Positions 3,372 to 46,829 of a stretch of 64,000 nucleotides of DNA are shown one piece after another. Under the pieces are notes generated by a model. It had not been told where the DNA came from. It did no database searches and saw only the letters and a program-made list of their open reading frames with translations. A program made the position numbers and the translations under genes. Location of the stretch: positions 437,840 through 501,839 of the forward strand of contig CAVSKL010000004.1 in NCBI GenBank assembly GCA_963728475.1, read 5' to 3'. The stretch is from Candidatus Eiseniibacteriota bacterium (GTDB taxonomy: Bacteria > Eisenbacteria > RBG-16-71-46 > JABDJR01). Within the stretch, counting starts at the first letter, position 1, and each line of letters starts with the position of its first letter.

Positions 3372-3808
3372 CGGCGCGCCCCGGCCGTTCCTCAGCGCGT
3401 GCGCTCCGCGTCCTCGGATGCCCGTCCTGTGCGCCGGGGAACTTCGCGCACGACGCAGCTGCTTCACTTCATCGGAAGATGGGAGCCGGCGCCTCGCGAA
3501 CGCGCGATTCGCGCGCGCGGAAGCTTTGAAGAATACGAGGAGATGGTTGCCATTCAGTACGACTTGTTGTTCACTCGGAGTTCGTATCGCTCTCGTCCGA
3601 TCCGGCACCTAGGCTCTCGCACCAAGGCCGCTTACGTAGGTTCCCCACTTGTCGATTTGCGGGCCTTTTCCTGCCGCTCTTCGGGTAGTTGAGCCTGTCA
3701 TCCCGTAGGTGCCTGACGTACACTCTGCCGAACTTGACGCCAGGGGTGGCAACGCTTGCTTTGCGGTGATGGCGATTCCCTCCCGGGAACGCCGCTGAGG
3801 AGACTGGC

Positions 3809-29580: not shown

Positions 29581-31461
29581 CTACACCAGGTCCTTCAGGG
29601 TGAGCGCGACCTCCCGCGAGGCGCCGTCCCGCGCCACCGTGAGCTGGATCACCGTACCCGGGGCCTCGGTCCGGAAGCGGGAACGCAGCTCGAGCAGCGT
29701 CTTGTCCCCGACCGGCCGCCCGTCCACCGCGGTGATGCGGTCGCCCGCGGCCAGGCCCGAGGCCTCGGCGGGGCCGCCGGCGGTCACGTCCATCACCCGG
29801 AGCCCGTCGCCGTCCCGGTTCAGCCACATCCCGGAGCGGTCGTAGACTTCGCGGGCGGGCGCGGCGGGATTCGGCTCGAAGTAGATCGTGAGCCCGCCGT
29901 AGTCGAAGGTGAGGTTGAACCGCGCCAGCACCCCCGCGCCCACGTTCCCGGCGGCGTAGGCGTCGGTGAAGGCGCCCTTGGTCTGGGCGGTAAGATCGAG
30001 CACCGGGCCCGGCACCGGCACCGCGCCCAGCTTAAGCTCCCCGCCCCGGGCCAAGCTCCCGCGGGCGGGTCCGCCCACCCCCCAGCCGGTCACCGCGGTG
30101 TACCGGGGAGCGTACTTGGCCGCCAGGCCGTGTTTGTCCACGAAGGGGGCGAGCAGCGTCACCGAGGCCCGGCTTCCGGTGTCCAGGTCGAACTTCCCCG
30201 GCACCCCGTCGATGGAGCCTTCCACCTGGGGGATGGTGCCGTTGAACACGAACGGGACCGCGGTCCCCGGTCCGTCGTAGTGGAACGCCTCCGGCACGGT
30301 GAGGGTGAGGGTGCTCTTCTCGTAGTCCACCCGGACCACGAACCGCTTGAACACCTCGTAGCCCACCAGCCCCAGCATGGGGACCCCCTCCACGTCGGAG
30401 TAGGACTCGAGCGGGAACACCGCGAAGATCTGGTCGTGCAGGGTGACGCCGCCCAGGGAGAGCGAATCCACCTTCACCATCCCCACGTCCACCGAGCCCT
30501 CACCGGCGCCCTTCCCCTGGAACGCGCCCTGGGGCTCGAGCCCCAGCTCCCCGGCCAGGGTGGGGGTGATCACGTTGGAGCCCCCGGTGTCGCAGAGGAT
30601 GCGGTAGGGCCCCTTGCCGTTCAGGCGCACGTCGATGTAGATGTGCCGGTTCAGGAACTTGAAGGGGACGGTGGCCGAGGTCGCGCCGCCGGCCAGGGTG
30701 AAGTCGGGAGGAGGCGGCGCCGGCGCGGAGAAGACGGCGGGGTCGAACCCGGCGTTCACCGCCACCGAGTCCACGGTCACGAACTGGTCGTAACGGGAGT
30801 CGCCGTTGGTGGAGCGGATGGAGTGGGGGATGAGGATTCCGCCCACCTTCCGGTAGTCGGAAAAGAACACGGCGCGGGTCTCGGTGGCCCCCCTCTCCAC
30901 CGTGCGATCGAAGGTCCAGGTGCCGGTGTCCACCCAGAGATCGAAGGGCCGGCCGCCGGCGGGGGTGAAACCGATCACCCGGAAGGTCCGCCCGTCGTGG
31001 GTGGAGTCGCCGCGGTCCACCACCGAGGCCGCCCCCCGGTCGGGGTACCACCACGCGTGGGCGTTCCGGAACGCCTCGTCCATCGCCCCCTCGCGGGCGT
31101 CGTCGCCGTTCTCGATCTGGACCTGGCCGGAGGCGTCCCGGGCCCACAGGGTGTCGCCGTCGAAGCCCTCGGCCCCGTGAATCGGGCCCAGCTCGAAGCG
31201 CGACACGTAGCGTCCGCTCACCACGTCGATCCAGGTCTCCGCGGTTCCGGAAAGGCCGCCGACCTTGACCGAGGACTCGACCCGGGTGTTCCGCACCCCG
31301 TCCCAGGCGCCGCCGCCCAGGGCTTCCTTGGCCCGGGCGAGAACCTGCTCGACGGGGATCGCGGCGTGGGCGGGGGGGGCGGCGAGGGCGGCAAGGGCGG
31401 CGAGGGCGGCGAGGGCGGCAAGGGCGGCGAGGGCGGCGATCAGCGGGAAACGGCGGGTCAC
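29581..31461 (-). CDS. secreted retropepsin-like (two Asp-protease halves) protease with C-terminal PDZ domain
   Basis: Signal peptide with an (AAL)n repeat. Two D-T-G sites (ILCDTGGSNV and FDLDTGSRAS) and a C-terminal PDZ (GLAAGDRITAVDGRPV). Confidence 0.8.
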   Translation of the reverse strand: MTRRFPLIAALAALAALAALAALAALAAPPAHAAIPVEQVLARAKEALGGGAWDGVRNTRVESSVKVGGLSGTAETWIDVVSGRYVSRFELGPIHGAEGFDGDTLWARDASGQVQIENGDDAREGAMDEAFRNAHAWWYPDRGAASVVDRGDSTHDGRTFRVIGFTPAGGRPFDLWVDTGTWTFDRTVERGATETRAVFFSDYRKVGGILIPHSIRSTNGDSRYDQFVTVDSVAVNAGFDPAVFSAPAPPPPDFTLAGGATSATVPFKFLNRHIYIDVRLNGKGPYRILCDTGGSNVITPTLAGELGLEPQGAFQGKGAGEGSVDVGMVKVDSLSLGGVTLHDQIFAVFPLESYSDVEGVPMLGLVGYEVFKRFVVRVDYEKSTLTLTVPEAFHYDGPGTAVPFVFNGTIPQVEGSIDGVPGKFDLDTGSRASVTLLAPFVDKHGLAAKYAPRYTAVTGWGVGGPARGSLARGGELKLGAVPVPGPVLDLTAQTKGAFTDAYAAGNVGAGVLARFNLTFDYGGLTIYFEPNPAAPAREVYDRSGMWLNRDGDGLRVMDVTAGGPAEASGLAAGDRITAVDGRPVGDKTLLELRSRFRTEAPGTVIQLTVARDGASREVALTLKDLV

Positions 31462-31549
31462 GGGCGGCTCCTCCTGTCGGGTCCGGTGGGGGTCGGGGTT
31501 CCGGGAAACAATACGGCTTCGCGCCTTGCGGAGTGGGGAAAATCGGCGG

Positions 31550-33052
31550 TCACAGGACCTCGGTCGAGCCCACCGTCGCCGGGACCGTGCCCCGGTAGCG
31601 GTAGAGCCCGCGCACGAGCCGGACCATCCACGGCCGCTGGAGCCGCACCGGGACCTGGTCCGCCGCCCGGCGCACCCCCAGGCTCCACGCCGGGTAGGGG
31701 AGGACGGTGCGGGAGAGCCGGGACAGGCCCACCCCGTTCCGCATGGCCACCGCCAGCAGCGAGATCGACTCCGAGGCCTCGGGGCCGACCACGCAGGCCC
31801 CCAGGATCTTTCCCCCCGCCAGCCCGAACCAGCGAACCGGCGACGCGTAGACCCGCACGAAGCCGGCGTCGCTCCCTTCCGCCACCGCCCGGTCGATCTT
31901 CCCCGCCGGCACGTGGATGGTCTCGAATCGCGCGCCCGCCCGGCGAAGCTCCTCCGCGGTCCGTCCCACGTGTCCCACCCCGGGATCGGTGAAGGTGGTC
32001 CAGGGCACGGCCCGGGTCTCGTACCGCACCAGCGGCAGACCGAACACCGCGTTCACCGCGGCGGCGCGGGCCATGTCGTCGGCGACGTGGGTGAAGTTCA
32101 GAAACGCGGCGGCGTCCCCGGCGGCGTGGATCCCGCGGGCCGAGGTCCGGCCGTGGGCGTCCACCGCGATCCCCTCGGGCCCATACCGCACCCCGGCCCG
32201 CTCCAGGTCCAGCCCGTCCAGGTTCGGCCTCCGTCCCGACGCCACCAGGAGGGCGTCGGCGGCCAGCGTCTCCCGGGGCCCGCCCGCCCCCGACACGACC
32301 TCCAGGCGCAGTCCTTCGGTGCTGCGTTCGACCCGGTGAATCGTGCTGTCGAGTAACAGGGTTACGCCGTCTTCTTCGAGTCGTTTCTGCAAGATCGCGG
32401 AGGCCTCGGGCTCGTCGCGGGGGAGCACCCGGGCGCCCCGCGCCACCACCGTGACCCGCGACCCCAGGGATGCGAACGCCTGGGCCAGCTCCATCCCCTG
32501 GGGGCCGGCGCCCAGGACCACCAGGCGGCCGGGGAGCACGGTGAGCTCGAACACGCTTTCGTTGGTGAGGTAGCCGGAGCCCGCCAGGCCGGGGATGTCG
32601 GGAACGCGGGGAGCGCTCCCGGTGGCGATTACCGCCCGGCGAAAACGTAGCGTCCGCTCGCCGCCGGGGCCGGTCGCGACCAGCGTGCGGGGGCCGGTGA
32701 ACCGGGCGGCGCCGTGGATCACCGCGACCCCGCGCCGGGCCAGAATGGGCTCCGCGTCGGACTCGGCGTACACCCGTTGGCGGACGCCGCGCACCGCTTC
32801 CAGGACCTTCGGGAAGTCCACCGAGACCTCGGCCCGGATGCCGCGGGCGGCCAGGCGGCGCGCCGACGCCGCGCCCCTTGCCGCGTGGAGGAGCGCCTTG
32901 GAGGGGATGCAGCCGGTCCAGGTGCAGTCGCCCCCCAGCCGCGCGCGCTCCACCAGGACGGTGCGGGCGCCGAAGGAAGCGGCCACCCCGGACGCGGTGA
33001 GCCCGGCCGCTCCGCCTCCGATCACCGCCACGTCCACGTCTTCCGGGTGCAT
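31550..33052 (-). CDS. FAD-dependent pyridine nucleotide-disulfide oxidoreductase (Lpd/MerA/GR family)
   Basis: Rossmann GxGxxG (VAVIGGGAAG), redox disulfide GGDCTWTGCIPSK, and a second NAD(P) fold (LVVLGAGPQG). The start was set at ATG 33052. The tool's longer ORF extension is antisense to recA. Confidence 0.8.
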   Translation of the reverse strand: MHPEDVDVAVIGGGAAGLTASGVAASFGARTVLVERARLGGDCTWTGCIPSKALLHAARGAASARRLAARGIRAEVSVDFPKVLEAVRGVRQRVYAESDAEPILARRGVAVIHGAARFTGPRTLVATGPGGERTLRFRRAVIATGSAPRVPDIPGLAGSGYLTNESVFELTVLPGRLVVLGAGPQGMELAQAFASLGSRVTVVARGARVLPRDEPEASAILQKRLEEDGVTLLLDSTIHRVERSTEGLRLEVVSGAGGPRETLAADALLVASGRRPNLDGLDLERAGVRYGPEGIAVDAHGRTSARGIHAAGDAAAFLNFTHVADDMARAAAVNAVFGLPLVRYETRAVPWTTFTDPGVGHVGRTAEELRRAGARFETIHVPAGKIDRAVAEGSDAGFVRVYASPVRWFGLAGGKILGACVVGPEASESISLLAVAMRNGVGLSRLSRTVLPYPAWSLGVRRAADQVPVRLQRPWMVRLVRGLYRYRGTVPATVGSTEVL

Positions 33053-35035: not shown

Positions 35036-35935
35036 CTATTTCTTCTCGAACACGAACCGATAGTGGTCGAACAGCTCGCGCTCAAAGGCGATCGCGTTGG
35101 CGCTGATCCCGGAGGTGAACGCGTGGCGGAAATCCGGGTTGAAGAGATAGCGCGGCAAGAGCGAGAGCCTGAGCAGGGCCTTTCGCGGAGTGAGTTTTCC
35201 GAAGCGCCGCCGCCATTCCGCGATCGTGGGGATGTAATCGAGCCGGCCGCTCTCCTTATAGACCAGCTTGAAGTGGGCGGCGGCGTTCCGCTCGACCTGT
35301 TCGTGCCCGTAGGGAAGCCACGAGCCGGGGAAGGTCTTCTGGAGGAGGGCCAGGACGTGCGCGTCGGAGAGGCGTGGCGCCCGGATGTCGATCTCCTCGT
35401 AGGGAATCATGTTGCGACCGAAGACCATGGTCTGGAGAAAGAACCGGCCGCCCGGCGGAATGAGCTGGGCGGCGTGGTTGAAGACCTTGGCGTAGATCTC
35501 GTCCTGCCGGCCGGCCCGCCATTCTCCGATCGAACAGAAGTGCTCGAATGCGCCGAGGCTCACGATGCCGTCGAAGGTGCCGAAGGTCTGGGGCGTCACC
35601 TCGCGCGCGTCCTGGAGGCGCACGTCGAAGCCGTGGCGTTCGCAGGCTTCGAGCTGCCCTCGGGAGAGGGTGACGCCCACCCCGGTGACGCCCTTCTCGC
35701 GGAAGAAGTTGAGCGTCGCGCCCCAGCCGCAGCCAAGGTCGATGATCCGGTCCCCGGGCTTCACGTTCAAGTATTGCCAGATGAGCTCGTGCTTCTTCCG
35801 CTGCGCCTGCTCGAGGGTGAGCGAGGTGTCGCCGTCATACTTGGCGCCGCTGAAATCCCCCAGCTCGCCGATACTGAGCCGGAAGATCTTGTCGATGAGG
35901 GTGTAGGTGAAGTCGAGATCTTTCTGCGACGCCAT
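35036..35935 (-). CDS. cyclopropane-fatty-acyl-phospholipid synthase-like SAM-dependent methyltransferase
   Basis: SAM-binding motif IIDLGCGWG and CFA-synthase family architecture. Visibly lower GC and a Lys/Ile/Phe/Tyr-rich composition unlike its neighbours. Confidence 0.8.
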   Translation of the reverse strand: MASQKDLDFTYTLIDKIFRLSIGELGDFSGAKYDGDTSLTLEQAQRKKHELIWQYLNVKPGDRIIDLGCGWGATLNFFREKGVTGVGVTLSRGQLEACERHGFDVRLQDAREVTPQTFGTFDGIVSLGAFEHFCSIGEWRAGRQDEIYAKVFNHAAQLIPPGGRFFLQTMVFGRNMIPYEEIDIRAPRLSDAHVLALLQKTFPGSWLPYGHEQVERNAAAHFKLVYKESGRLDYIPTIAEWRRRFGKLTPRKALLRLSLLPRYLFNPDFRHAFTSGISANAIAFERELFDHYRFVFEKK

Positions 35936-36165
35936 TCCGGTTCCGTCCTCCGGTGATGTTCGCAGACTATCGGGGCGGCCGCCCTCCGTCCAGGGTGCAG
36001 GAGCCGCGGCGGGGGGGGAGTTCGGGATCCACCGGTAACGCCGCGATCGCGGCCAGCGGACCGGCGCCGCCGTGCCTTGACATGGTTCCCGCGAGCCACG
36101 ACACTAGCCGGGTTTTCGGCTCCCGTTCTCGCAGGATTCTCCTCATCTCCGATCGGTCGGTATCC

Positions 36166-36945
36166 ATGCGTCTCGCATTCGCCGTCACCCTCATGGTCCT
36201 CGCCGGGGCCGGTCCCGCCGCCGCCGGCGGCGGCCTCGATGCCGGCGGCGGGGTGCGCACGGACGGCCTGATCCTGGTCCGCGATGCCCTCGGGATGCCG
36301 CTGGCCGGGGTGAGCGGCGCCGACAGCGTGACCGTGACGAGCGGTCTCCTCTTCGGGGTCTCGTTCCCTACCCCGGTCCTCCTCGCCGCGCTGGAGCTGA
36401 GCGTTACCGCCGACGGGGTCACCCTCACCTGGCGGGCGGGGAGCGACTCCGGCGTGCTCCTCTACCTCCTCGAACGCGCTCCCGAGGCCTCGGACGGGTC
36501 GGTGGGGGGTTACACGGAGATCGCGGCGCCCTTCGAGGGACCGGGTCCGCATACCTGGCTCGACCGCGACGCCGTCCCCGGGAACCGGTACCGGTACCGG
36601 CTCCGGGCCCGGCTCCGGGACGGAAGCGAGGAGGTGCTGGGGCCGTGGCCGGCGTCGGTGCCGGCGAGCGCGGTCCCCGCGCAGGCGAGGATCCTGGCCG
36701 CGAGCCCCAACCCCTTCCGCGACGCCTTCGTGATCTCGTTCGCGTTGCCGCGCGATCTGCCGGTGCGGTGGCGGCTCCTCGACGTTCGGGGCGCGCTGGT
36801 GAGCGAGGGGGATCTGGGGATCGAGTCCGCGGGCATCCATGCCACCGCGGTGCGCCCCCCCGAGGCCGCCGCGCGCGGGGTCTATTTCCTCCAGGTGGAG
36901 GCGGGGGGCCTCCGCACGGTGCAGAAGGTGGTGAAGCTCCCATGA
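36166..36945 (+). CDS. secreted protein with T9SS/FlgD-Ig-like C-terminal sorting domain
   Basis: Signal peptide MRLAFAVTLMVLAGAGPAAA. C-terminal ASPNPFRDAFVISFALP...VRWRLLDVRGALV...GVYFLQVEAGG...KVVKL matches the CTD pattern. Confidence 0.7.
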   Translation: MRLAFAVTLMVLAGAGPAAAGGGLDAGGGVRTDGLILVRDALGMPLAGVSGADSVTVTSGLLFGVSFPTPVLLAALELSVTADGVTLTWRAGSDSGVLLYLLERAPEASDGSVGGYTEIAAPFEGPGPHTWLDRDAVPGNRYRYRLRARLRDGSEEVLGPWPASVPASAVPAQARILAASPNPFRDAFVISFALPRDLPVRWRLLDVRGALVSEGDLGIESAGIHATAVRPPEAAARGVYFLQVEAGGLRTVQKVVKLP

Positions 36946-38765
36946 CCGGATTCTCCCGCCCGCTTCGCACCGGGCTCGCGATGCTCGCCGCCGCCCTTCT
37001 GGGGGGAGCCGCCCCGTTGCCGGCGGGAGCCGGCGCGCTCCCCGCCGCCGCCGCCTCGCCCGAGGCCGGGGCCGAAGCCCCCGTCCCGCCCGCGTCCGCC
37101 GCCGCCCAGTCCGCGCCGCCCGTCCTCACCTACCAGGGCCGGTTCCTGGACCCGGACACCCGGAAGCCGATGCCGGGGCCGGTGGATCTGGCCTTCGCCC
37201 TCTTCCCCGCCGCCGACGGCGGCACCGCCCTCTGGACCGAGGAGCACCCCCAGGTCCCGCTGGTGGACGGGGTGGCCACGGTGCTCCTGGGAAGCATCAC
37301 CGCCTTCTCCGCCGACGCCTTCAGCGCCGCCCAGAGGTACCTGGAGATCACGGTGAACGGTTCGGTCCTCAGCCCCCGGCTCGCGGTGACCTCGGTCCCG
37401 TACGCGCTGGAGTCCGAGCGGCTGAACGGCCGGAGCGCGGACGCGTTCGAGCCGGCGGGAGCGGTGGGCGCGCTCCGCGATTCGCTCTCGGGCTCCGACG
37501 GCAGCCCTCCCGGCCAGGGACGGAACCTGGTCCACTGGGACAACCTGGCCGGCGTGCCCGCCGGGTTCGCGGACGCGGTGGACGACACCGGCCACGGGGT
37601 CGCCGACCATGGCCGGCTCACCGGGCTCCTGGACGACGACCATCCCCAGTACATGCTGCGGAGCGAGCTGAAGGCCTCGGACGGATCCCCTCCCAACCAG
37701 GGGTCCAACATCGTGAGCTGGAACAACCTCGCCGACGTGCCGCCCGGCTTCGCCGACGGTACCGACGACGGGGGCGGAGGTCCGGGCTCGGTGACCGGGG
37801 CCGACGTGGTGGACTCGAGCCTCACCGGAATCGATCTCGCCGACAGCACCGTCACCGGGCGGAACGTGGGCCCGCGCACCCTCACCGGGGGGCACCTGGC
37901 CCGGCGCTCGGTGACCGGGGACGAGCTGGCGCTGGAGACGGTGACCTCGGCGAACATCCTCGACGACAGCGTGCTGGGCGCCGACGTGCTGGACGGCACC
38001 CTGTCCCCGGCGGACCTGGCGACCGGGGCGGTGACCGCGGCCAAGCTCGCCGACGGCGCGGTGACCACCGGCAAGGTCGCCGACGGCGCGGTCACCCCGC
38101 AGAAGCTGTCCTTTCCCCCCGGCGACATCACCGCGGTCGACGTGGCCGGGGGGCTCTCCGGCGGCGGGCAGAGCGGCGACGTGACGCTGTCGGTGGGAGC
38201 GGGGACCGGCATCCAGGTCTCGGGCTCGGCGGTGAGCCTGGAGCCGTCCTACGCATCGGGGAGCGCCTACGACGGCCGGTTCGTGTCGCAGAGCCTTCCC
38301 ACCTGGCAGCCGCAGGCCGCCTCGATTTCGGTCTCCGGCGCCACCTTCCGGCCGGTGAGCCCCACCGGCCGCTTCACCGCCCGCGACGATCTGGGCTACG
38401 TCTACGTGGACTCGGTGGGGAACGCGGGGGCCGAGCACCGGTTCACCGCCCCCATCCCGCTGCCCGACGGGGCCCAGATCACCGGCTTCACCGTGAGCTA
38501 CTGGGACGACAGCGCCGGGTTCCTGGTCGTCTCGCTCATGCGGGCCCGGCAGTCCACGGGGTCGGTGGGGGCGGTGGCCTCGATCGCCACCGCCGGCGAG
38601 TCCCCGGCCTGGGCGCAGTCCAGCGACCCCACCATCGCCGAGACCGCGGTCGACGACGCCGAATACACCTTCTGGCTCTCCGCCGACTTCCCCTCCGAGC
38701 CGCAGGGCGATGCGCTGCGGCTCCTGGCGGTGCGGGTGAGCTACACCGTGGCGCGGCCGCACTGA
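36942..38765 (+). CDS. secreted tail-fibre-like repeat protein (paralog A)
   Basis: Signal peptide and an N-terminal module LTYQGRFLDP...GPVDL...GGTALW.E.HPQVPLVDGVATV. Tandem ~11-residue V(T/S)GxD(V/L)xDxS(L/V) repeats. The ATG overlaps the upstream stop. Confidence 0.65.
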   Translation: MTGFSRPLRTGLAMLAAALLGGAAPLPAGAGALPAAAASPEAGAEAPVPPASAAAQSAPPVLTYQGRFLDPDTRKPMPGPVDLAFALFPAADGGTALWTEEHPQVPLVDGVATVLLGSITAFSADAFSAAQRYLEITVNGSVLSPRLAVTSVPYALESERLNGRSADAFEPAGAVGALRDSLSGSDGSPPGQGRNLVHWDNLAGVPAGFADAVDDTGHGVADHGRLTGLLDDDHPQYMLRSELKASDGSPPNQGSNIVSWNNLADVPPGFADGTDDGGGGPGSVTGADVVDSSLTGIDLADSTVTGRNVGPRTLTGGHLARRSVTGDELALETVTSANILDDSVLGADVLDGTLSPADLATGAVTAAKLADGAVTTGKVADGAVTPQKLSFPPGDITAVDVAGGLSGGGQSGDVTLSVGAGTGIQVSGSAVSLEPSYASGSAYDGRFVSQSLPTWQPQAASISVSGATFRPVSPTGRFTARDDLGYVYVDSVGNAGAEHRFTAPIPLPDGAQITGFTVSYWDDSAGFLVVSLMRARQSTGSVGAVASIATAGESPAWAQSSDPTIAETAVDDAEYTFWLSADFPSEPQGDALRLLAVRVSYTVARPH

Positions 38766-38799
38766 TGCGGCCGCGCGCGGTCGGAAACGGACGGTCGCG

Positions 38800-40656
38800 A
38801 TGAGAACATCTTGTCGCCGGCCCGGGGGCGCGGCGTGGCCGGCCCCGGCGGCGCTCTTGCTCTGCGTCTCCTTGGCCGCCTCCCCGGCGGCGGCCCGGCC
38901 CCGGGCGCTCGCAACTCCCGCGGGCGCGGCCACCACCGGGGGGATCGCATCGGCGGCCCAGAGCACGCCCCAGCTCGTCACCTACCAGGGGCGGTTCCTG
39001 GATCCGGAGGGCAAGCCCCTGGCCGGCCCGGTGGACCTCACCTTCCGGCTTTACACCGCCGCCGCCGGCGGGACGCAGCTCTGGTTCGAGACCCACCCCC
39101 AGGTGCCGCTGGTGGACGGGGTGGCCACGGTGATGCTGGGGTCGCTGGTCACCTTCCCCTTCGAGGCCTTCACCGAACCCGCCCGCTACCTGGGAATCAC
39201 GGTGGGAAACGGCGCCGAGATGACCCCCCGGATGGCGGTGACCTCGGTGCCCTTCGCGTTCCAGGCGGAGCGCCTGCAGGGGCTGGGGGCGGCCGACTTC
39301 GAGCCCAGGGGGGCGGTGTCGTCGCTCGGCGACTCGCTGGCCGCCGGCGACGGCAGCCCGCCCAACCAGGGGGCGAACCGGGTGGCCTGGAACAACCTCA
39401 CCGGCGTCCCCGACGGTTTCGCCGACGGTGAGGACCAGGGGGCGACCGACCACGGCCAGCTCACCGGGCTCCTGGACAACGACCATCCCCAGTACATGCT
39501 GCGGAGCGACCTCAAGAACTCGGACGGCGACCCTCCCGACGAGGGTTCGAACCTGGTGAGCTGGAACAACCTCACCGACGTGCCCTTCGGGTTCGCGGAC
39601 GGGACGGACAACCGCGGCATCGACCCGGGCACGGTCACCGGCACGGACGTCGCCGATTCCTCGCTCACCGGAATCGATCTCGCCGACAGCACCGTGACCG
39701 GCCGGAACGTGGCCCCGCGCACGCTGGCCGGCACGCACCTGGCCCTCCACTCGGTGGGAGGGGACGAGCTCGCCTTCGACAGCGTTTCCGGCGCCGAGAT
39801 CCTCGACGGGAGCGTGTCCGGCGCCGACGTCGAGGACGGGTCCCTCACCGGGTCCGACCTGGCGCCCGGTGCGGTGGGGAGCGCCGCCCTCGCCGGCGGC
39901 GCGGTGACCGGAGCGGCGCTGGCCGCGGGAGCGGTGGACTCGACGTCCATCGCCGACGGCGGGGTTTCGGGGGCGGACCTGGCTCCGGGCGCGGTGGGGA
40001 GCGCCGCCCTCGCCGGCGGCGCGGTGACCGGAGCGGCGCTGGCCCCGGGGGCGGTGGACTCGGCGTCGATCGCGGCCGGCGGGGTATCGGGGGTGGACTT
40101 GGCTCCCGGCGCGGTGGACCGAGGCCGCCTCGCCGACGCCGCCGTGGACAGCAGCGCCCTCGGGGAGGGGGCGGTCACCGGACTCCGGATCCGCGACGAG
40201 TCGATCACCGGCGCGGACATCAAGAACGGCAGCGTGCGCGCGGTGGATCTCATGGAGGGGGCGGGCGGGGAGTACCTGGGCGAGCCCGACGTCCACCCGG
40301 TCGCCGCGGCGGCGGCCACCGTGCTCTACAAGGACATCACCTGTCCGGCCGACGGCTGGGTGCTGGCGGTGGCCACCGCCCAGGGCTGCGTGCAGACCGC
40401 CGCCGGAGGCGGGGAGCACCCGCTGACCTTCTCGGTCTCCGCGGCCGACGGCGCGCCGGACCCGGTGGCCAGGGTCGAGTACCGGGTGGTGGGAGCGGCC
40501 GGGGCCACCCAGTGCGCGCCGGTGGTCTCGCAGAAGCTCTTCACGGTGCAGAAGGGGCTCCGGACCTTCTACGTGGTGGCGCAGGGGGATGGGGCCGCCA
40601 CCATGGAGGTCTCGCAGGTGAACCTCAGCCTGATCTTCCTGGGCACCCATTATTAG
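38800..40656 (+). CDS. secreted tail-fibre-like repeat protein (paralog B)
   Basis: Colinear with paralog A over the N-terminal ~330 aa (LVTYQGRFLDPEGKPLAGPVDLTFRLY...GSPPNQG.N.V.WNNL..VP.GFADG, LTGLLDNDHPQYMLRSDLK), followed by a longer repeat tract. Confidence 0.65.
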   Translation: MRTSCRRPGGAAWPAPAALLLCVSLAASPAAARPRALATPAGAATTGGIASAAQSTPQLVTYQGRFLDPEGKPLAGPVDLTFRLYTAAAGGTQLWFETHPQVPLVDGVATVMLGSLVTFPFEAFTEPARYLGITVGNGAEMTPRMAVTSVPFAFQAERLQGLGAADFEPRGAVSSLGDSLAAGDGSPPNQGANRVAWNNLTGVPDGFADGEDQGATDHGQLTGLLDNDHPQYMLRSDLKNSDGDPPDEGSNLVSWNNLTDVPFGFADGTDNRGIDPGTVTGTDVADSSLTGIDLADSTVTGRNVAPRTLAGTHLALHSVGGDELAFDSVSGAEILDGSVSGADVEDGSLTGSDLAPGAVGSAALAGGAVTGAALAAGAVDSTSIADGGVSGADLAPGAVGSAALAGGAVTGAALAPGAVDSASIAAGGVSGVDLAPGAVDRGRLADAAVDSSALGEGAVTGLRIRDESITGADIKNGSVRAVDLMEGAGGEYLGEPDVHPVAAAAATVLYKDITCPADGWVLAVATAQGCVQTAAGGGEHPLTFSVSAADGAPDPVARVEYRVVGAAGATQCAPVVSQKLFTVQKGLRTFYVVAQGDGAATMEVSQVNLSLIFLGTHY

Positions 40657-40826
40657 CCGGGCGCGGGGACTTCCCCGCCGGTCCCGGCCCGGTCGTCCCG
40701 GGGAGGCCTCAGGAGGGGCGCGCCTGGCCCGGAGCGTCCCGGGCGCGCTATACTCACCCGTTTCATTCGAACCCCCCCGGAGTGAGGCGTGGAACCGCTC
40801 CGGAAACGCCGGTGAGAGAGGACGTC

Positions 40827-43481
40827 ATGGCCAAGGCGCTGACCACCCAGGAAATCCGAGATCAGTTCACCCGCTTCTTCGTGGAGCGGGGGCACCGGCA
40901 GGCGCCCTCCTCGCCTCTGGTGCCGCTGGACGACCCCACCCTGCTCTTCACCTCGGCGGGGATGGTCCAGTTCAAGCCGATGTTCGCGGCCAGGGGCGCC
41001 CTGGAATTCACCCGCGCCACCACCATCCAGAAGTGCTTCCGGGTCACCGACCTGGAGCGGGTGGGGCATACCCCGCGGCATCTGACCTTTTTCGAGATGC
41101 TGGGGAACTTCTCCTTCGGCGACTACTTCAAGCGCGAGGCCATCCTCTGGGCCTGGGAGTTCGTGACCGGGGTCCTGGCCATGGACACCTCCAAGCTCTG
41201 GGCCACCGTCTACCTGGACGACGACGAGGCGGCGGCGATCTGGGAGAAGGAGGTGGGGCTTCCCGCCGGCCGGATCGTGCGGTTGGGGAAGGCGGACAAT
41301 TTCTGGGGCCCCGCCGGATCCAGCGGCGCCTGCGGCCCCTCGAGCGAGATCTACTGGGACCTGGGGCCGGACTTCGGCTGCGGCCGCCCCGACTGCAAGG
41401 CGGGCTGCGAATGCGACCGCTACCAGGAGTTCTGGAACCTGGTCTTCCCGCAGTTCTACCAGGACGAGGCGGGGAACCTCACCCCGCTCCCGCGGAAGGG
41501 CATCGACACCGGCATGGGCCTGGAGCGGCTGGCGCAGATCCTCCAGGGGAAGCGGTCGGTGTTCGAGACCGACGAGCTGGAGCGGCTCCGCGAGGCGGCG
41601 GTGGCCCTGGCCGGGGTGAAGGACGAGGGCGACGCCGCCCGGATCGCCTACAACGTGATCTCCGAGCACGCCCGCGCGGTGACCATGCTCTTCAACGAGG
41701 GGGTCTACCCCTCCAACGAGGGGCGGGGCTACGTGGCCCGGCGGATCCTGCGGCGGGCGGCGCGACGGGGCCTCGTGCTGGGGCTCCGCGAGCCGTTCCT
41801 GCACAAGCTCACCGGCACCGTGATCGACATCATGGGGGGCGCCTATCCGGAGCTGGAGCAGAGCCGGGACCGCATCGCCAAGGTGTGCGAGGCGGAGGAG
41901 ACGCGCTTCCTGGAGACCCTCGAGACCGGCATGCGCCGGTTCCAGGAGGTGGTGGAGCGCACCCGGGAACGCGGCGACACCGTGATCTCGGGGCGGGACG
42001 CGTTCACCCTCTACGACACCTACGGCTTCCCGCAGGACATGACGGTGGAGATGGCGGAGGAGGTGAAGCTCACCGTGGACGAAGCCGGCTTCGCCCGGGC
42101 CATGGAGGAGCAGGTGGAGCGCTCCCGGGCCAGCGCGCGGTTCGACGTGGCTCCGGGGGAGGAGGCGCCCTGGACCTGGCTGCTGCCTCAGGACGAGCCG
42201 CACTCCGCGTACGTGGGCTACGACTTCCTGGAGACCGAGGCGCGGATCGCGGCCTGGCGTCCGGCGGGCGAGGACCGGATCGAGTTTCTCCTCGACACCA
42301 CCCCCTTCTACGCGGAAGGCGGGGGCCAGGTGGGGGACCGGGGACGGCTGGCCGGCGACGGGTTCGCGCTCGAGGTCACCGGGGTGGTGCGCCGGGACGG
42401 GCTCCACGTGCATCGCGGGCGGGTGCTCCGGGGCGAGCCGGAGGCCGGCCCCTACCGAGCGGAGGTGGATCGCGAGGCCCGCCGGAACACCGAGCGGAAC
42501 CATACCGCCACCCACCTGCTCCATGCCGCGCTCAAGCGCGTGGTGGGAACCCACGTGACCCAGGCGGGCTCGCTGGTGGCACCGGACCGGCTGCGCTTCG
42601 ACTTCAACCACTTCTCGCCGCTCACTCCCGGGGAGATCCGGGCGATCGAGGACGACGTGAACCGCGCGGTGCTCGCCGATTATCCGGTGCACAAGGAGAT
42701 CACCGGCATGGACGAAGCGCGCGCGGCCGGGGCCACCGCCATGTTCGGGGAGAAGTACGGGGAGCGGGTGCGGCAGGTCTTCGTGCGGAACGAGGACGAG
42801 CACGACGTGAGCCGCGAACTCTGCGGCGGTTGCCACGTGCGCCGGACCGGCGAGATCGGGTCCTTCAAGATTCTCTCGGAGGAGTCCGTGGCCGCGGGCA
42901 TCCGCCGGGTGGAGGCGGCCACCGGCTGGAACACGGTAGGCCGCTTCCGCGAGGAGGACGACCTCCTGCGGCGGATCGAGGGTACCGTGCGGGCGGCCTC
43001 GGCGCGGGAGCTGGAGAGCCGGGTCCAGGGGGTGGTGGACGAGAACGAGAGGCTCAAGCGTGAGCTGGCCCGGCTCCGGAACGAACTCCTCGACCGGTCT
43101 TCCGGCGACATCCTGGACCGGGTGGAGGCGGTGGACGGGGTGGCGTTTCTGGGGGTGGAGTTGCCGGTGAACGATCCCCGGGCGCTCCGCGAGGCCGCGG
43201 ACAAGCTTCGCGACCGCATGAAGAGCGGGGTGGGGCTTCTCGCCGCCCGCGGCGAGGACAAGGTGCAGCTCCTGGCCTTCGTCACCGACGATCTCGTCGC
43301 CGGCCGCGGCCTTCGCGCCGACCACCTGGTGCGCGAGGCGGCCAAGGTGGTGGGGGGCGGAGGCGGCGGGCGCCCCCAGCTCGCCACCGCCGGCGGCAAG
43401 GACCTGGAGCGCATCCCCGACGCCCTCGCCCGCGGGCGGGAAGTGCTGGCGGAGATGCTGGCGGGGAAGGTCGCGGGTTGA
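40827..43481 (+). CDS. alaS: alanine--tRNA ligase
   Basis: Full-length class II aaRS with AlaRS catalytic motifs, the editing domain HxxxH...CGG (HTATHLLH, CGGCH) and a C-terminal domain. Confidence 0.95.
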   Translation: MAKALTTQEIRDQFTRFFVERGHRQAPSSPLVPLDDPTLLFTSAGMVQFKPMFAARGALEFTRATTIQKCFRVTDLERVGHTPRHLTFFEMLGNFSFGDYFKREAILWAWEFVTGVLAMDTSKLWATVYLDDDEAAAIWEKEVGLPAGRIVRLGKADNFWGPAGSSGACGPSSEIYWDLGPDFGCGRPDCKAGCECDRYQEFWNLVFPQFYQDEAGNLTPLPRKGIDTGMGLERLAQILQGKRSVFETDELERLREAAVALAGVKDEGDAARIAYNVISEHARAVTMLFNEGVYPSNEGRGYVARRILRRAARRGLVLGLREPFLHKLTGTVIDIMGGAYPELEQSRDRIAKVCEAEETRFLETLETGMRRFQEVVERTRERGDTVISGRDAFTLYDTYGFPQDMTVEMAEEVKLTVDEAGFARAMEEQVERSRASARFDVAPGEEAPWTWLLPQDEPHSAYVGYDFLETEARIAAWRPAGEDRIEFLLDTTPFYAEGGGQVGDRGRLAGDGFALEVTGVVRRDGLHVHRGRVLRGEPEAGPYRAEVDREARRNTERNHTATHLLHAALKRVVGTHVTQAGSLVAPDRLRFDFNHFSPLTPGEIRAIEDDVNRAVLADYPVHKEITGMDEARAAGATAMFGEKYGERVRQVFVRNEDEHDVSRELCGGCHVRRTGEIGSFKILSEESVAAGIRRVEAATGWNTVGRFREEDDLLRRIEGTVRAASARELESRVQGVVDENERLKRELARLRNELLDRSSGDILDRVEAVDGVAFLGVELPVNDPRALREAADKLRDRMKSGVGLLAARGEDKVQLLAFVTDDLVAGRGLRADHLVREAAKVVGGGGGGRPQLATAGGKDLERIPDALARGREVLAEMLAGKVAG

Positions 43482-43506: not shown

Positions 43507-45504
43507 TCAGGGGCCGGTGGTGTCCGGCTTCGCTGCCCCCGCGCCGGTGCTGTCCGCCGCGCCCGCCTTCCGCAGCGGCCGCTTCACGTAGCGGAGGATC
43601 TTGAGCGACCGGCCGTTCTCCACCGGCTGGAACCGCGCCACCGTGGGGAGGATCGACTCCAGGAGCGCCGGCGTCCGGGCGAGGTCCTCGGACGAGACCA
43701 CGAAGGCCAGCGGATGCGGCGCCACCGCCACCGCCACGCTGTCGAGGAGCGCCAACGGATCGTGCCCCCGCTGGAACCGGTCGAGAAGCGTCCGCCGCGC
43801 CCCGACCTCGGAGCGGACCGCGGGATCGCCTTCCGGCACCGACGCCGTCACCGCCATGGGCGGGCCCAGGAACGCCGCGCGCGGGAGATACATCTGCTCC
43901 TCGCTCACCGGGCGTGGGGTGAGGGGATAGAGGAGCACGGTGTCGAGCGGGAGCGCCGCGTCGGCCCGGACCAGCATCTCCTTCTCCTCGCCGGTCCAGC
44001 GGGTGGCGCCCGAGGTGTCCCGCCGGGCCGCCGGGATCATCGCGACCGGGGTCGCCAGGAGCGCCGCCGCCGTGATCCCGGCGATCGCCGCTCCGGCGGG
44101 GCGCCGGGCCAGGCGCTCCAGGCCGAGGGCGATCGGGACGCCGAGCACCGCGAGCGCGGCCCAGGCCAGCCCCGAGGCTCCCGCCCCCAGGCCGGGGAGC
44201 GCGAACGCCGCCACCGCCGCGGTTCCGGCCGCGGCCAGCCAGCCCCGGCGGCCGCGCAGCACTCCCCCCGCCACCGCCGCGCCGGCGAGGAGCGGCGCCA
44301 GCGACCAGAGGAGCGCGGCCGGCGGCGACGGCGCCCGGGTGAGCAGGAGGAAGTCGGGGAGCCGGGAGAGGTCGCCGCCTCCGGCCAGGAGCAGGGTGGG
44401 GAGCGCCCCCACCGCCGCCACCAGGAGGGCCAGCGCGGTCTCGGCGAACCCGCTCCGGCCGGCGGCGCCCAGGCGCCACGCCCCCCAGAGCAACGTCCCC
44501 GTCCCTCCCACCAGCGGCTGGAAGAGGACCGCGCCCGCGAGGAGCACGCCCAGGACGGGGGCCCGGAGCCGGAAGCGCGGCCCGGCGGCGACCGAACCCG
44601 CCGCGACCAGGAGCGCCGCCGTCCAGGGGAGCGGTCCCGCCCCCCAGGCCATGGGAAGGAGTCCGGAGAGGACCGGGTCGCCGTGTCCGAAGGCGATCAT
44701 GGCCCGGAGGAGCCGCGGATCGTGAAGCGGGGGGAGCGGCCCCGCCGGTCCATGGCCCGGAGCCACCAGGCCGAGCAGGGTGATCCCCCCGGCCGCCACC
44801 GCGGGGAACGCGGCCTGGGCCCACCCCCCGCCGCCGGCGCGCGCGGTCCACCGCAGGCCGGCCAGGAGGAGCGCTCCCACCGCCGCCAGCTGCAGAAGGA
44901 CCAGGAAGAGCGGGCCGGGAACTCCGGTGGCCGCCCACACCGGGGCCAGTGCGGCGGCGAACGCCCAGGGGCGCCCGAAGGGGGTGCCGGCCAGGAACGG
45001 GTTCGCCGGAGGCAGGGCGCCGCCCCGGAGTTCCCCGAGAAGGGGAAGCAGGAGGCCGGCGCCGGCCCGGGTCCAGAGGGTGGGGTTGAGGAGCAGCGGC
45101 AGCGCGGCCAGGGCCAGGACCGCGGCCAGCGCGACCAGGCCCGGGCGGGAGAGCGGGGCCTCGGGCGGGGACGCGGGCGCCCCGGGTTCGGGCGCGCCCT
45201 CCGCGAACGCCCAGAAACCGGCCCAGAGCGACACCGCGAGCCGGGCGGCGGCCACCGCGCTTCCGGTCAGTTCGGCGGCGGGCCAGCTCAGCGCCGCGAC
45301 CAGGAGTGGGGAGAGCGCCAGCGCCGAGCCCCACGAGCACCGGTGGCCGAAGCGGACGAGGAGGCTCCGGCCCGGAAGGAGCAGCGCGGCGGGGAGGACG
45401 GTGACGAGCTTCACCACCCACGGCATCCCGGGCACCCAGATCGCGGCCAGGAGCAGGAACACCAGACCCCAGCGCACCGCGCCGGTCACGCTTCGCATCC
45501 GCAT
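43507..45504 (-). CDS. large polytopic membrane protein (glycosyltransferase-39/ArnT-like or DUF2079-like), function unknown
   Basis: ~660 aa that are highly hydrophobic, with many TM helices and a C-terminal soluble domain. The start is set at ATG 45504, which has a GGAGG RBS. The longer tool ORF has a non-membrane N-terminal extension. Confidence 0.55.
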   Translation of the reverse strand: MRMRSVTGAVRWGLVFLLLAAIWVPGMPWVVKLVTVLPAALLLPGRSLLVRFGHRCSWGSALALSPLLVAALSWPAAELTGSAVAAARLAVSLWAGFWAFAEGAPEPGAPASPPEAPLSRPGLVALAAVLALAALPLLLNPTLWTRAGAGLLLPLLGELRGGALPPANPFLAGTPFGRPWAFAAALAPVWAATGVPGPLFLVLLQLAAVGALLLAGLRWTARAGGGGWAQAAFPAVAAGGITLLGLVAPGHGPAGPLPPLHDPRLLRAMIAFGHGDPVLSGLLPMAWGAGPLPWTAALLVAAGSVAAGPRFRLRAPVLGVLLAGAVLFQPLVGGTGTLLWGAWRLGAAGRSGFAETALALLVAAVGALPTLLLAGGGDLSRLPDFLLLTRAPSPPAALLWSLAPLLAGAAVAGGVLRGRRGWLAAAGTAAVAAFALPGLGAGASGLAWAALAVLGVPIALGLERLARRPAGAAIAGITAAALLATPVAMIPAARRDTSGATRWTGEEKEMLVRADAALPLDTVLLYPLTPRPVSEEQMYLPRAAFLGPPMAVTASVPEGDPAVRSEVGARRTLLDRFQRGHDPLALLDSVAVAVAPHPLAFVVSSEDLARTPALLESILPTVARFQPVENGRSLKILRYVKRPLRKAGAADSTGAGAAKPDTTGP

Positions 45505-45683
45505 CCCACCTCCGGCGGGTCCGCTGTCCGGGCCCCGCGCCGGAGAGCGGAGGTCCGGTCGGCCGGCGCCGGCGTCTAGCACGGACGGCGCCGGGCCCGG
45601 GGGAGTGTAGCAGCCCGCCCGAGGTCCGGTCCCGCCAAGTCTGCGTCCGCGCCGTCCGGCGCAACCGGCCGCGTTGACCCGAG

Positions 45684-46829
45684 TTGGCGGCTCTGGTACC
45701 GTCTCGGGCTCGACCACTCCGGCACACGCTCACGAACCCCGACACCCTCCCCCGGAGGTGCGCGATCAAGGCCCTCATCCTGAGCGGCGGCAAGGGCACC
45801 CGCCTCCGCCCCATCACCTTCACCAGCGCCAAGCAGCTGGTTCCGGTCGCCAACAAGCCGATCCTCTACTACGGCATCGAGGCCATTCGCGACGCCGGCA
45901 TCACCGACGTCGGCATCGTGGTCGGCGACACCCACGAGGAGATCCGGGCCTCGGTGGGAGACGGTTCCCGCTGGGGGGTCCGGGTGACCTACATCCGGCA
46001 GGAGGCGCCCCTGGGCCTGGCCCACGCGGTCAAGGTGAGCCGCGACTACCTGGGCGGCGACCGCTTCGTGATGTTCCTCGGCGACAACCTGATCAAGGAC
46101 GGCATCACCCCGCTGGTGCGTGAGTTCGAGGCCGAGCGCCCCGACTGCCAGATCCTCCTCGCCCACGTCAAGAACCCGCAGGAGTTCGGGGTGGCGGAGC
46201 TGAGCGGGAACCGGGTAGTCCGCCTGGAGGAGAAGCCGGCCCGGCCGCGATCCGACCTCGCCCTGGTCGGGGTCTACATGTTCGACCCCTCCGTGTTCGA
46301 GGCGGTGGACGCCATCCGCCCTTCGGCGAGGGGGGAGCTGGAGATCACCGACGCCATCCAGTACCTGATCGACACCCGGCGCGACGTCCGCAGCCACGTC
46401 ATCACCGGCTGGTGGAAGGACACCGGCAAGCTCGAGGACATGCTCGAGGCCAACCGCATCGTGCTGGCGGGGATCGGCACCCGCATCGACGGCACCGTGG
46501 ACGCGGACAGCCGGATCGAGGGGGACGTGGTGATCGGCAAGGGGAGCCGGGTGGTGGGGAGCACGCTCCGCGGGCCCCTCATCGTGGGGGAGGACTGCCT
46601 GATCGAGGACGCGTTCGTGGGCCCCTTCACCTCCATCCACGACCGCGCGGTCATCCGGGGGAGCGAGGTGGAGCACTCCATCCTGCTCGAGGACGCCCGG
46701 GTGATCGGCCTGGAGAAGCGGATGGAGTCGAGCCTTCTCGGCCGCCACGTGGAGATCCTGCGCTCGGACAAGCGCCCGGCCACCTATCGTTTCCTGGTGG
46801 GGGACATGGGGCGGATCGAGGTCGGCTAG
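45684..46829 (+). CDS. rmlA: glucose-1-phosphate thymidylyltransferase, long form (nucleotidyltransferase plus C-terminal LbH domain)
   Basis: LILSGGKGTRLRPITFTSAKQLVPVANKPIL nucleotidyltransferase signature and a C-terminal hexapeptide repeat region. The start is uncertain, because the N-terminal 25 aa are atypical. Confidence 0.8.
   Translation: MAALVPSRARPLRHTLTNPDTLPRRCAIKALILSGGKGTRLRPITFTSAKQLVPVANKPILYYGIEAIRDAGITDVGIVVGDTHEEIRASVGDGSRWGVRVTYIRQEAPLGLAHAVKVSRDYLGGDRFVMFLGDNLIKDGITPLVREFEAERPDCQILLAHVKNPQEFGVAELSGNRVVRLEEKPARPRSDLALVGVYMFDPSVFEAVDAIRPSARGELEITDAIQYLIDTRRDVRSHVITGWWKDTGKLEDMLEANRIVLAGIGTRIDGTVDADSRIEGDVVIGKGSRVVGSTLRGPLIVGEDCLIEDAFVGPFTSIHDRAVIRGSEVEHSILLEDARVIGLEKRMESSLLGRHVEILRSDKRPATYRFLVGDMGRIEVG

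Follow-up and report, generated by a model that had tools for sequence, protein, structure and literature searches.

A predicted pair of MAT-like fibres and a putative secreted partner in a Candidatus Eiseniibacteriota genome

Mosaic adhesive trimer (MAT) fibres were described in 2024 as prey-recognition adhesins of the predator Bdellovibrio bacteriovorus (PMC10769870). By definition, they begin with a signal peptide and a conserved β-rich N-domain, form an intertwined trimeric fibre and end in a C-terminal tip that varies (Caulton et al., 2024, PMC10769870). This tip may be an S74 chaperone/protease or a different adhesive fold, for instance a TNF-like domain or a C-type lectin. MAT proteins have already been listed in the FCB group, Omnitrophica, the PVC group and Myxococcales (PMC10769870, Suppl. 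Table S3). Retention of the fibres on the cell was explicitly left open, and the surface element bound by the MAT N-domain was stated to be unidentified (Caulton et al., PMC10769870). For the candidate phyla radiation (CPR), PamT has been reported as the predicted tip pilin of the Pam pili, and the pam operon is reported to be consistently accompanied by a tail-fibre-like gene (bioRxiv 10.64898/2026.03.03.709456). Here we describe a 64,000-nt stretch of DNA from a Candidatus Eiseniibacteriota bacterium (contig CAVSKL010000004.1, positions 437,840 to 501,839; hereafter the window), in which three consecutive genes, named C, A and B, encode putatively secreted proteins. A and B are in all likelihood MAT-like fibres, and C is probably their dedicated partner.

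The N-domain, shaft and tips of A and B

A and B are 62% identical over 373 aa (BLASTP, E = 9e-140); their N-terminal ~390 residues are common and their tips unrelated. This bears out the paralogy, and the shared motifs, pointed out in a preliminary description of this DNA. The NCBIfam profile NF053851 (Bdello_MAT_N, cut-off 60 bits) matched residues 53-122 of A (E = 2.6e-8, 33.8 bits) and residues 49-115 of B (E = 3e-9, 36.9 bits), as well as 31 of 32 family members (best E = 9.8e-13). Homology of the A/B N-domain to MAT_N is likely. With AlphaFold2, an all-β domain was predicted for residues 61-150 of A and 56-148 of B, with a predicted local distance difference test (pLDDT) score above 90. 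The whole model of A gave no fold match in the Protein Data Bank (PDB) at E < 0.05 with Foldseek (best E 0.05), and since this model carries the same N-domain as B, the domain appears to be without a solved relative, in agreement with Caulton et al. A profile search of the PDB with the N-domain also gave no match. Pfam held no family for A or B at E ≤ 1 and neither protein contains an S74 domain. When proteins were searched with the N-domain profile, all matches were fragments without a name, none longer than 190 aa.

The N-domain was detected neither by tblastn in 50,697 phage genomes nor in 64 viral contigs having the shaft motifs described below. Among 129 related open reading frames (ORFs), it mostly lies right after the signal peptide (start at residue ~22-30), with a minority starting later. 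In A and B it spans ~95 aa and is preceded by an Ala/Pro linker of 25-30 aa after the signal peptide, whereas the ~130-aa domain of the Bdellovibrio MAT proteins directly follows the signal peptide. In distant relatives the same N-domain is combined with Peptidase_S74, YadA head, collagen, fibrinogen C or FG-GAP C-terminal domains. This mosaic of C-terminal domains on one N-domain is the pattern, with S74 and non-S74 tips, described by Caulton et al. (PMC10769870).

Between the N-domain and the shaft, A and B each contain two copies of a unit of the form DGSPPxQGxNxVxWxNLxGVPxGFADGxD ... DHxxLTGLLDDDHPQY. Matches in IMG/VR viral contigs and GenBank phages were confined to the motifs of this unit (query residues ~180-270) and to the repeats. 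The likeness to phage tail fibres that the preliminary description saw in the whole N-terminal module therefore holds for the motifs at residues ~180-270 and not for the first ~95 residues, which correspond to the cellular MAT N-domain. In the shaft, the period is exactly 10 residues (30 nt) by lag autocorrelation (mean BLOSUM62 score 1.76 at lag 10, against a maximum of 0.26 in 200 shuffles) and not ~11 residues as first described, and Tandem Repeats Finder reported 30-nt arrays in both A and B. Positions 39856-40117 in B hold 2.2 copies, at 90% identity, of a 120-nt unit made of four decapeptides, a recent in-frame duplication. Repeat number varies from 3 to 21 among the orthologues; shaft length appears to change quickly, since the recent 120-nt duplication fits this range.

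Both shafts matched tail-fibre families in PHROGs, that of B with E = 2.6e-23 for phrog_28766 and 7.6e-23 for phrog_892 and that of A with E = 4e-11 and 3.3e-9, respectively. By tblastn, the B shaft also found cyanopodovirus tail-fibre-like proteins (E = 3e-4 to 6e-4). The shaft sequence is pentapeptide-repeat-like, and its AlphaFold2 monomer model had pLDDT < 50 in A and in B; in the B model, everything between N-domain and tip was below 50 and both end domains were above 90. Such a shaft, of low confidence as a monomer and flanked by confident ends, would fit an obligate oligomer without showing one. That the repeats are an artefact of GC-rich composition (window GC ~70%) was ruled out, as had been expected, by the frame-specific third-position GC (0.83-0.93 in frame) and by conservation, the repeats and domains of A and B being kept in orthologues and distant relatives.

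With the B model as query, Foldseek found 67 PDB structures at E ≤ 1e-3. Every one of them is a jelly roll of the TNF/C1q-like type, which typically forms trimers. The top match was the lectin BC2L-C (2wq4, target-normalised TM-score 0.70), PLTL (9ib7) gave 0.71, and further matches included Pgp3, BxpB/ExsFA, TNF, C1q and phage receptor-binding proteins. There were also 315 viral fold matches, many of them C1q-domain or tail-fibre proteins. The A model, which includes this N-domain too, gave no matches, so that those of B presumably come from its tip. The Foldseek comparison, suggested earlier for the N-terminal module and the repeats, yielded a TNF/C1q-like fold for the B tip and no PDB fold for the N-domain. 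BC2L-C and PLTL, both trimeric TNF-like lectins, resemble the B tip (TM-score 0.70-0.71, root-mean-square deviation ~3.4 Å) at 7-14% sequence identity, the likeness being one of fold. By analogy with these structurally similar lectins, the B tip would most likely bind a glycan. Caulton et al. placed 2wq4 beside the tip of the Bdellovibrio protein Bd2734 (PMC10769870, Suppl. Fig. 21). The tip of A was modelled at pLDDT 60-74, only the N-domain of the A model being confident. It is common to the A-type orthologues P0009, P0011, P0012 and P0015 and has no recognisable fold, with a best Foldseek PDB match at E 0.05 and no sequence relative in the PDB.

Like the Bdellovibrio MAT proteins, A and B appear to consist of a signal peptide followed by a probably homologous β-rich N-domain, a predicted long fibre and a variable C-terminal tip. 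The Bdellovibrio set likewise includes non-S74 members with TNF-like tips, among them Bd2734, shown beside the very structure that is the top match of B, and tandem paralogues (bd0704/0705, bd3266/3267). A and B differ from them in being shorter (~610 versus ~1000 aa), in having a decapeptide shaft and in their host, an uncultured Eisenbacteria-like bacterium without a known predatory lifestyle. With phage tail fibres (PHROGs 28766 and 892; cyanopodoviruses S-TIP37 and P-GSP1), A and B share the shaft repeats and the DHxxLTGLxDDDHPQY and GFADGxD motifs, and B shares the TNF/C1q-like tip fold, but the N-terminal attachment domain differs and no virion genes are nearby. From their sequences, A and B appear to be short, distant non-S74 MAT relatives that join a cellular N-terminal end to phage-like shaft and tip parts. 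MAT-like fibres in a further phylum are an extension of the known family and not a new kind. The PHROGs matches and the tip of B also support the surface fibre or adhesin proposed in the preliminary description.

A conserved cassette and its probable partner gene

The stop codon of C and the start of A share an ATGA overlap and 34 nt separate A from B, as read directly from the sequence. C, A and B alike start with a hydrophobic segment and, after it, an Ala-rich motif of the cleavage type, both read by eye, and the ORFs agree with the three consecutive secreted proteins of the preliminary description. The cassette lies between recX and alaS, and the order recA-recX-C-A-B-alaS is kept in four Candidatus Eisenbacteria/Eiseniibacteriota genomes, the nearest relatives. 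Between the window and these four loci, identity is 83-85% for RecA and 68-78% for AlaS, compared with 49-55% for C, 54-59% for A and 40-48% for B. The synteny of the cassette and these identities indicate that the A/B duplication predates these species, and the cassette appears to evolve faster than its neighbour genes. On balance we favour the view that C-A-B is a three-gene operon of the core chromosome that encodes a cell-surface adhesion apparatus.

C consists of a signal peptide, a module of ~45 aa, an Fn3-like stretch (recognised by sequence pattern only) and a type IX secretion system (T9SS) type A sorting domain. The sorting domain, noted previously, was upheld by a marginal pass for TIGR04183 (24.4 bits, cut-off 23), and Pfam PF18962 scored 19.1 bits (E = 0.0017), below its cut-off of 27; C orthologues and further partners have the sorting domain as well. 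As in T9SS type A cargo, a signal peptide is thus combined with a C-terminal sorting domain over the NCBIfam cut-off. Unlike such cargo, C lacks any enzymatic or adhesin domain, and its conserved part is the N-terminal module, which is common to partners ending in dockerin or a YLP-box. What the preliminary description missed is that the upstream gene is probably a conserved fibre partner rather than one more secreted protein.

Using phmmer with C against the ORFs of 77 N-domain loci, we found T9SS sorting domains and a short N-terminal region in fibre-adjacent genes. A hidden Markov model (HMM) of the module, built from these fibre-adjacent N-terminal regions and iterated to convergence, gave 38 domain hits in 35 loci when the flanks (±10 kb) were searched. 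All 38 were in same-strand ORFs no more than 430 bp away from a fibre gene or tandem array, and there were no hits elsewhere in the ±10 kb flanks. Where at least 700 bp were available on both sides, the partner was present at 31 of 48 loci. It usually lies downstream of the fibre gene at a distance of 10-100 bp, with one partner per array of one to six fibre genes (the sole exception being locus L037, described below). Every other gene family in the neighbourhood of the fibres recurs in 11 loci at most. Partners were found in Eisenbacteria, Ignavibacteria, Zixibacteria, KSB1, Gemmatimonadota, Myxococcota and Chloroflexota and also in Desulfobacterota and other Deltaproteobacteria.

The association was also seen in the reverse direction. 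Searching with the module profile gave 41 proteins, all without names and 75-98 aa long, and the partner-first loci for which DNA was available had an N-domain gene 10-17 bp upstream in six of six cases (E = 1e-13 to 1e-21); all six encode the small Chloroflexota-type partner, and this reverse test covers that one type. HMMER, run exhaustively over 1.84 billion representatives, detected 3204 module proteins with E ≤ 1e-3, of which 302 had E ≤ 1e-10. Among the 150 best of these, the usual position of the module is residues ~25-80, and two or three copies are present in some proteins. The module had no match in Pfam (46 proteins scanned), in PHROGs (10 canonical partners and C) or among PDB sequences, and none was found in the 64 viral contigs having the shaft motifs.

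C orthologues lie directly upstream of the fibre pair in the four Eisenbacteria loci. Aligning the Eisenbacteria alignment (A9) with the module alignment (A10) by hhalign gave a probability of 91% (E = 1.1e-6) over 43 colinear columns, and the match in C sits directly after the signal peptide. When searched with an Eisenbacteria-free HMM, the C orthologues ranked 1-4 of 619 ORFs, at the correct position. In another Eisenbacteria genome (L046), the same upstream position is occupied by a 172-aa protein in which a canonical module is fused directly to a T9SS sorting domain. C is a probable divergent member of the module family.

Beyond the module, partners differ in their C-termini. Of 36 fibre-adjacent partners, 12 have a T9SS sorting domain (TIGR04183, E ≤ 0.01) and another 12 have dockerin, and the Chloroflexota partners end in YLP-box-like tails (one with E = 0.0038 against the putative sorting motif NF050076, the rest by eye). 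Choice-of-anchor U/V, IPTL-CTERM, CFI-box-CTERM and myxosortase-dependent domains occur in other module proteins. The C-termini of the partners thus look like devices for surface sorting or anchoring that are specific to each lineage. The module was also matched by positions 33-81 of the NCBIfam profile for PamT (NF058579) in 27 of 35 module proteins (best E = 1.2e-9), at no more than 34 bits against an equivalog cut-off of 240 and over part of the profile length. C itself gave no PamT match and has no pilin-like domain, the likeness of PamT to the partners being at the level of the module only. As for Bdellovibrio, a term search of the main text of Caulton et al. found no partner.

Several partner types were distinctive. 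In Ignavibacteria and Zixibacteria (L034 5658-19691, L036, L015, L019, L023 and L028), a tandem array of four to six MAT-like fibre genes has one partner of ~200 aa behind it. This type of partner combines a long linker rich in Lys, Pro and Thr with the module and two dockerin repeats, and AGEQINW stands directly before the module. The minimal Chloroflexota-type partners (P0051-P0091; L045, L059, L062, L064, L080, L082 and L148-L151) have ~92 aa, and their mature part of ~65 aa comprises three S-x-N-Y-x-L strands and an (I/V)YLP(L/V)(I/V)(L/M)(K/R) tail. As a speculation, three similar strands facing a trimeric fibre might be a symmetry match. At L037 5098-8926, in a deltaproteobacterial metagenome-assembled genome, each of two fibre genes has its own tiny partner upstream, in which an acidic linker is followed by the module and a GPGAAVNQ tail. 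Two or three tandem modules were present in P0204, P0209, P0213, P0265, P0270 and P0276; the three modules of P0204 (1034 aa) have other domains in between.

A possible anchoring mechanism and its alternatives

In the mechanism that we propose, A and B would be exported by the Sec pathway and form intertwined homotrimers, with the conserved N-domain next to the cell. The shaft, made of the tail-fibre-like units and 11 or 21 decapeptides, would serve as a spacer of variable length, and the two different tips would bind different ligands: that of B TNF-like and probably glycan-binding, that of A of no identified fold, on shafts that differ in length. The ~45-aa module of C may dock onto the N-domain common to A and B, while the sorting domain would route C through a type IX system and tether it at the outer-membrane surface, so that C would be the anchor holding either fibre on the cell. 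Contact between module and N-domain is suggested by three features of the partners, namely that their conserved part tracks the conserved part of the fibres, that one partner serves arrays with different tips, and that their variable part is always a surface sorting or anchoring device. Surface display of A and B is what we infer from this arrangement, and it is conceivable that the fibres are exported together with C. That the partner acts as an anchoring adaptor is plausible, with the chances just short of even.

More tentatively, the module might define an undescribed multi-phylum family of docking adaptors for MAT-type fibres, and so be the surface element that Caulton et al. had to leave unidentified, fused in each lineage to its own anchor. 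If so, which we regard as possible and still somewhat doubtful, the anchor could be the T9SS sorting domain in Eisenbacteria and KSB1, dockerin in Ignavibacteria, Zixibacteria and Gemmatimonadota, and the YLP-box in Chloroflexota. In CPR bacteria, PamT might possibly take the part of the anchor, an equally tentative extension by which the Pam pilus would carry a tail-fibre-like adhesin at its tip.

A number of observations weigh against these proposals. A and B fall under the NCBIfam cut-off (~35 versus 60 bits), with the best stretch covering profile positions 6-78 of 162; judged by these scores, they would be distant relatives and not members of the curated Bdello_MAT_N subfamily. The module of C is divergent and without the GQP motif, and with the HMM built without Eisenbacteria the C orthologues scored E = 0.01-1 and C of the window was not listed, so that the assignment of C to the module family rests on the hhalign probability of 91%, position and context. 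At 17 of the 48 testable loci no partner was detected, and a search of 4498 locus ORFs and 350 fetched proteins found no fusion of N-domain and module. Large multidomain proteins, too, can have the module at their start, possibly pointing to a more general role. A and B themselves have no T9SS sorting domain that would account for their crossing of the outer membrane, and none of the T9SS machinery (SprA, PorU/V, GldK-N) was found among the ten largest ORFs in a search limited to the window. We also found no paper linking Eisenbacteria with T9SS in a literature search. Elsewhere in the window, the gene at 3770-5488 (+) encodes an N,N-dimethylformamidase beta-subunit-like domain (E = 3e-79) with a C-terminal FlgD Ig-like segment. 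Since FlgD-type ends accompany T9SS sorting domains in the partners, this suggests more T9SS-type cargo in this genome.

The observed gene arrangement could also be produced if the partner is a fibre assembly chaperone and not an anchor. Phage tail-fibre assembly proteins are encoded directly after tail-fibre genes and help trimerisation, acting on the tip. A partner gene directly beside the fibre gene, usually 10-100 bp downstream, many very small partners (mature protein ~65 aa) and a shaft built of phage-fibre-like parts are all in keeping with such a role. However, the partners have signal peptides of their own and a T9SS sorting domain, dockerin or YLP-box, which would be useless to a transient chaperone, and one partner serves up to six fibres with different tips, where the common part is the N-domain and not the tip on which phage chaperones act. 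The lack of a PHROGs match for the module, which ruled out a phage-type tail-fibre chaperone by homology, and its absence from the 64 viral contigs having the shaft motifs point in the same direction, and we consider a chaperone unlikely. An origin of the C module by chance, with C an unrelated T9SS cargo that merely shares an operon with the fibres, would account for the non-significant score of the window's C with the independent HMM, and the module is short and Gly/Ser-rich. Against this stand the colinear hhalign match directly after the signal peptide, the top four ranks of the C orthologues at the correct position, the retention of C upstream of the fibres in four species and the L046 protein, with canonical module and sorting domain, at the same position. 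Such a coincidence seems improbable to us.

For the fibres, an alternative would be that A and B are monomeric β-helix proteins of the pentapeptide-repeat type, secreted as decoys or scaffolds, with only a superficial resemblance to trimeric fibres. Among PDB sequences, the shaft matched pentapeptide-repeat proteins of both designed and natural origin (4yfo, E = 1.7e-7; 2j8k, 3du1) and, weakly, PipB2 and HetL of NCBIfam, and it has hydrophobic residues every 5 positions with strong lags 20 and 40. Yet the Pfam pentapeptide families gave no match at E ≤ 1, the NCBIfam models HetL, MfpA and PipB2 reached 12-23 bits against cut-offs of 260-360, and the match to tail-fibre PHROGs was far stronger (E 1e-23). 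AlphaFold2 normally models pentapeptide-repeat helices confidently, whereas the shaft of A and B had pLDDT < 50, and the flanking MAT-type N-domain and typically trimeric TNF/C1q-like tip also speak for a fibre. There is little probability left for a monomeric helix, and far less for A and B being the tail fibres of a prophage or extracellular contractile injection system of which the locus is a remnant. That last idea draws on the tail-fibre PHROGs and viral fold matches. It is contradicted by the lack of phage or injection-system genes among the large ORFs of the 64-kb window and within ±10 kb of the orthologous locus L001/L003 (the flanks of L004-L006 were inspected for synteny markers only), by the position of the cassette between recX and alaS in four species, by a GC content not atypical for the window and by the absence of the N-domain from the 50,697 phage genomes. 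The link to a contractile system raised in the preliminary description likewise finds no support, given the housekeeping neighbours and the same chromosomal position in four species.

For MAT-like fibres with C as their partner, the partner gene is the part worth following. Among the proteins tested it has no dedicated Pfam, NCBIfam or PHROGs model, the only recurring match being the weak and partial one to PamT, and a small unannotated gene beside fibre genes in at least eight phyla is a candidate answer to the anchoring of MAT fibres. If this is true, it would provide a general rule for mounting interchangeable phage-like adhesive fibres on bacterial surfaces, the pairing of an N-domain gene with a module gene would be a genomic marker for such systems in uncultured phyla, and a way to display engineered binding tips on cells would be suggested. 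If only the identification of the fibres holds, a known family has been extended, as a matter of routine, to one more phylum.

Features of the cassette and its surroundings

Coordinates of the cassette are collected in the table below. A promoter and terminator scan of positions 35800-41000 found no sites. The products of C, A and B are present at identical lengths, nameless, in a public protein collection. Cytochrome oxidase, dnaX, H+-PPase and smc genes are, with recA, among the neighbours, and the large ORFs elsewhere in the window are housekeeping genes (these same four-gene types, less recA, and a nucleotidyl transferase).

Table. Positions of the C-A-B genes and their parts in the window
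Feature	Positions	Strand	Length or residues	Remarks
Gene C	36166-36945	+	259 aa	Putative secreted partner/adaptor; ORF and translation
Partner module of C	36214-36369	+	17-68	Core GGGLDAGGGVRTDGLILVRDALGMPLAGVSGADSVTVTSGLLFGV; divergent copy (probable)
T9SS type A C-terminal sorting domain of C	36703-36936	+	180-257	
Gene A	36942-38765	+	607 aa	Predicted MAT-like fibre, non-S74 type; start overlaps C stop
N-domain of A	37110-37403	+	57-154	All-β, MAT_N-like
Two tail-fibre-like units in A	37488-37790	+	~183-283	Read from sequence
Decapeptide-repeat shaft of A	37779-38111	+	280-390	~11 units
Collar and C-terminal tip of A	38124-38762	+	395-607	Collar GDITAVDVAGGLSGGGQSGDVTLSV; predicted β-sandwich 497-603
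Gene B	38800-40656	+	618 aa	Predicted MAT-like fibre, non-S74 type; 34 nt 3´ of A
N-domain of B	38962-39255	+	55-152	MAT_N-like
Two tail-fibre-like units in B	39340-39624	+	~181-275	Read from sequence
Decapeptide-repeat shaft of B	39622-40245	+	275-482	~21 units
C-terminal tip of B	40261-40653	+	488-618	TNF/C1q-like jelly roll; pLDDT >90

We also noted three ORFs outside the cassette. Between recX and gene C, positions 35036-35935 (-) encode a 299-aa product with a DLGCGWG motif, which we take from its sequence to resemble an S-adenosylmethionine-dependent methyltransferase of the cyclopropane-fatty-acid-synthase-like type. In the relative L001, no gene was called at this position and the C orthologue directly follows recX. 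In a large ORF at 29584-32052 (-), a retropepsin-like aspartyl protease domain is combined with a PDZ domain at the C-terminus; this ORF and the end of a pyridine-nucleotide-disulfide oxidoreductase ORF overlap, and the gene boundaries are uncertain. Finally, 3´ of alaS, a 736-aa ORF at 43507-45717 (-) has many hydrophobic stretches and no Pfam match at E ≤ 1e-5, and this region has the highest GC content (0.78) and the strongest AT skew (0.34) in the window.

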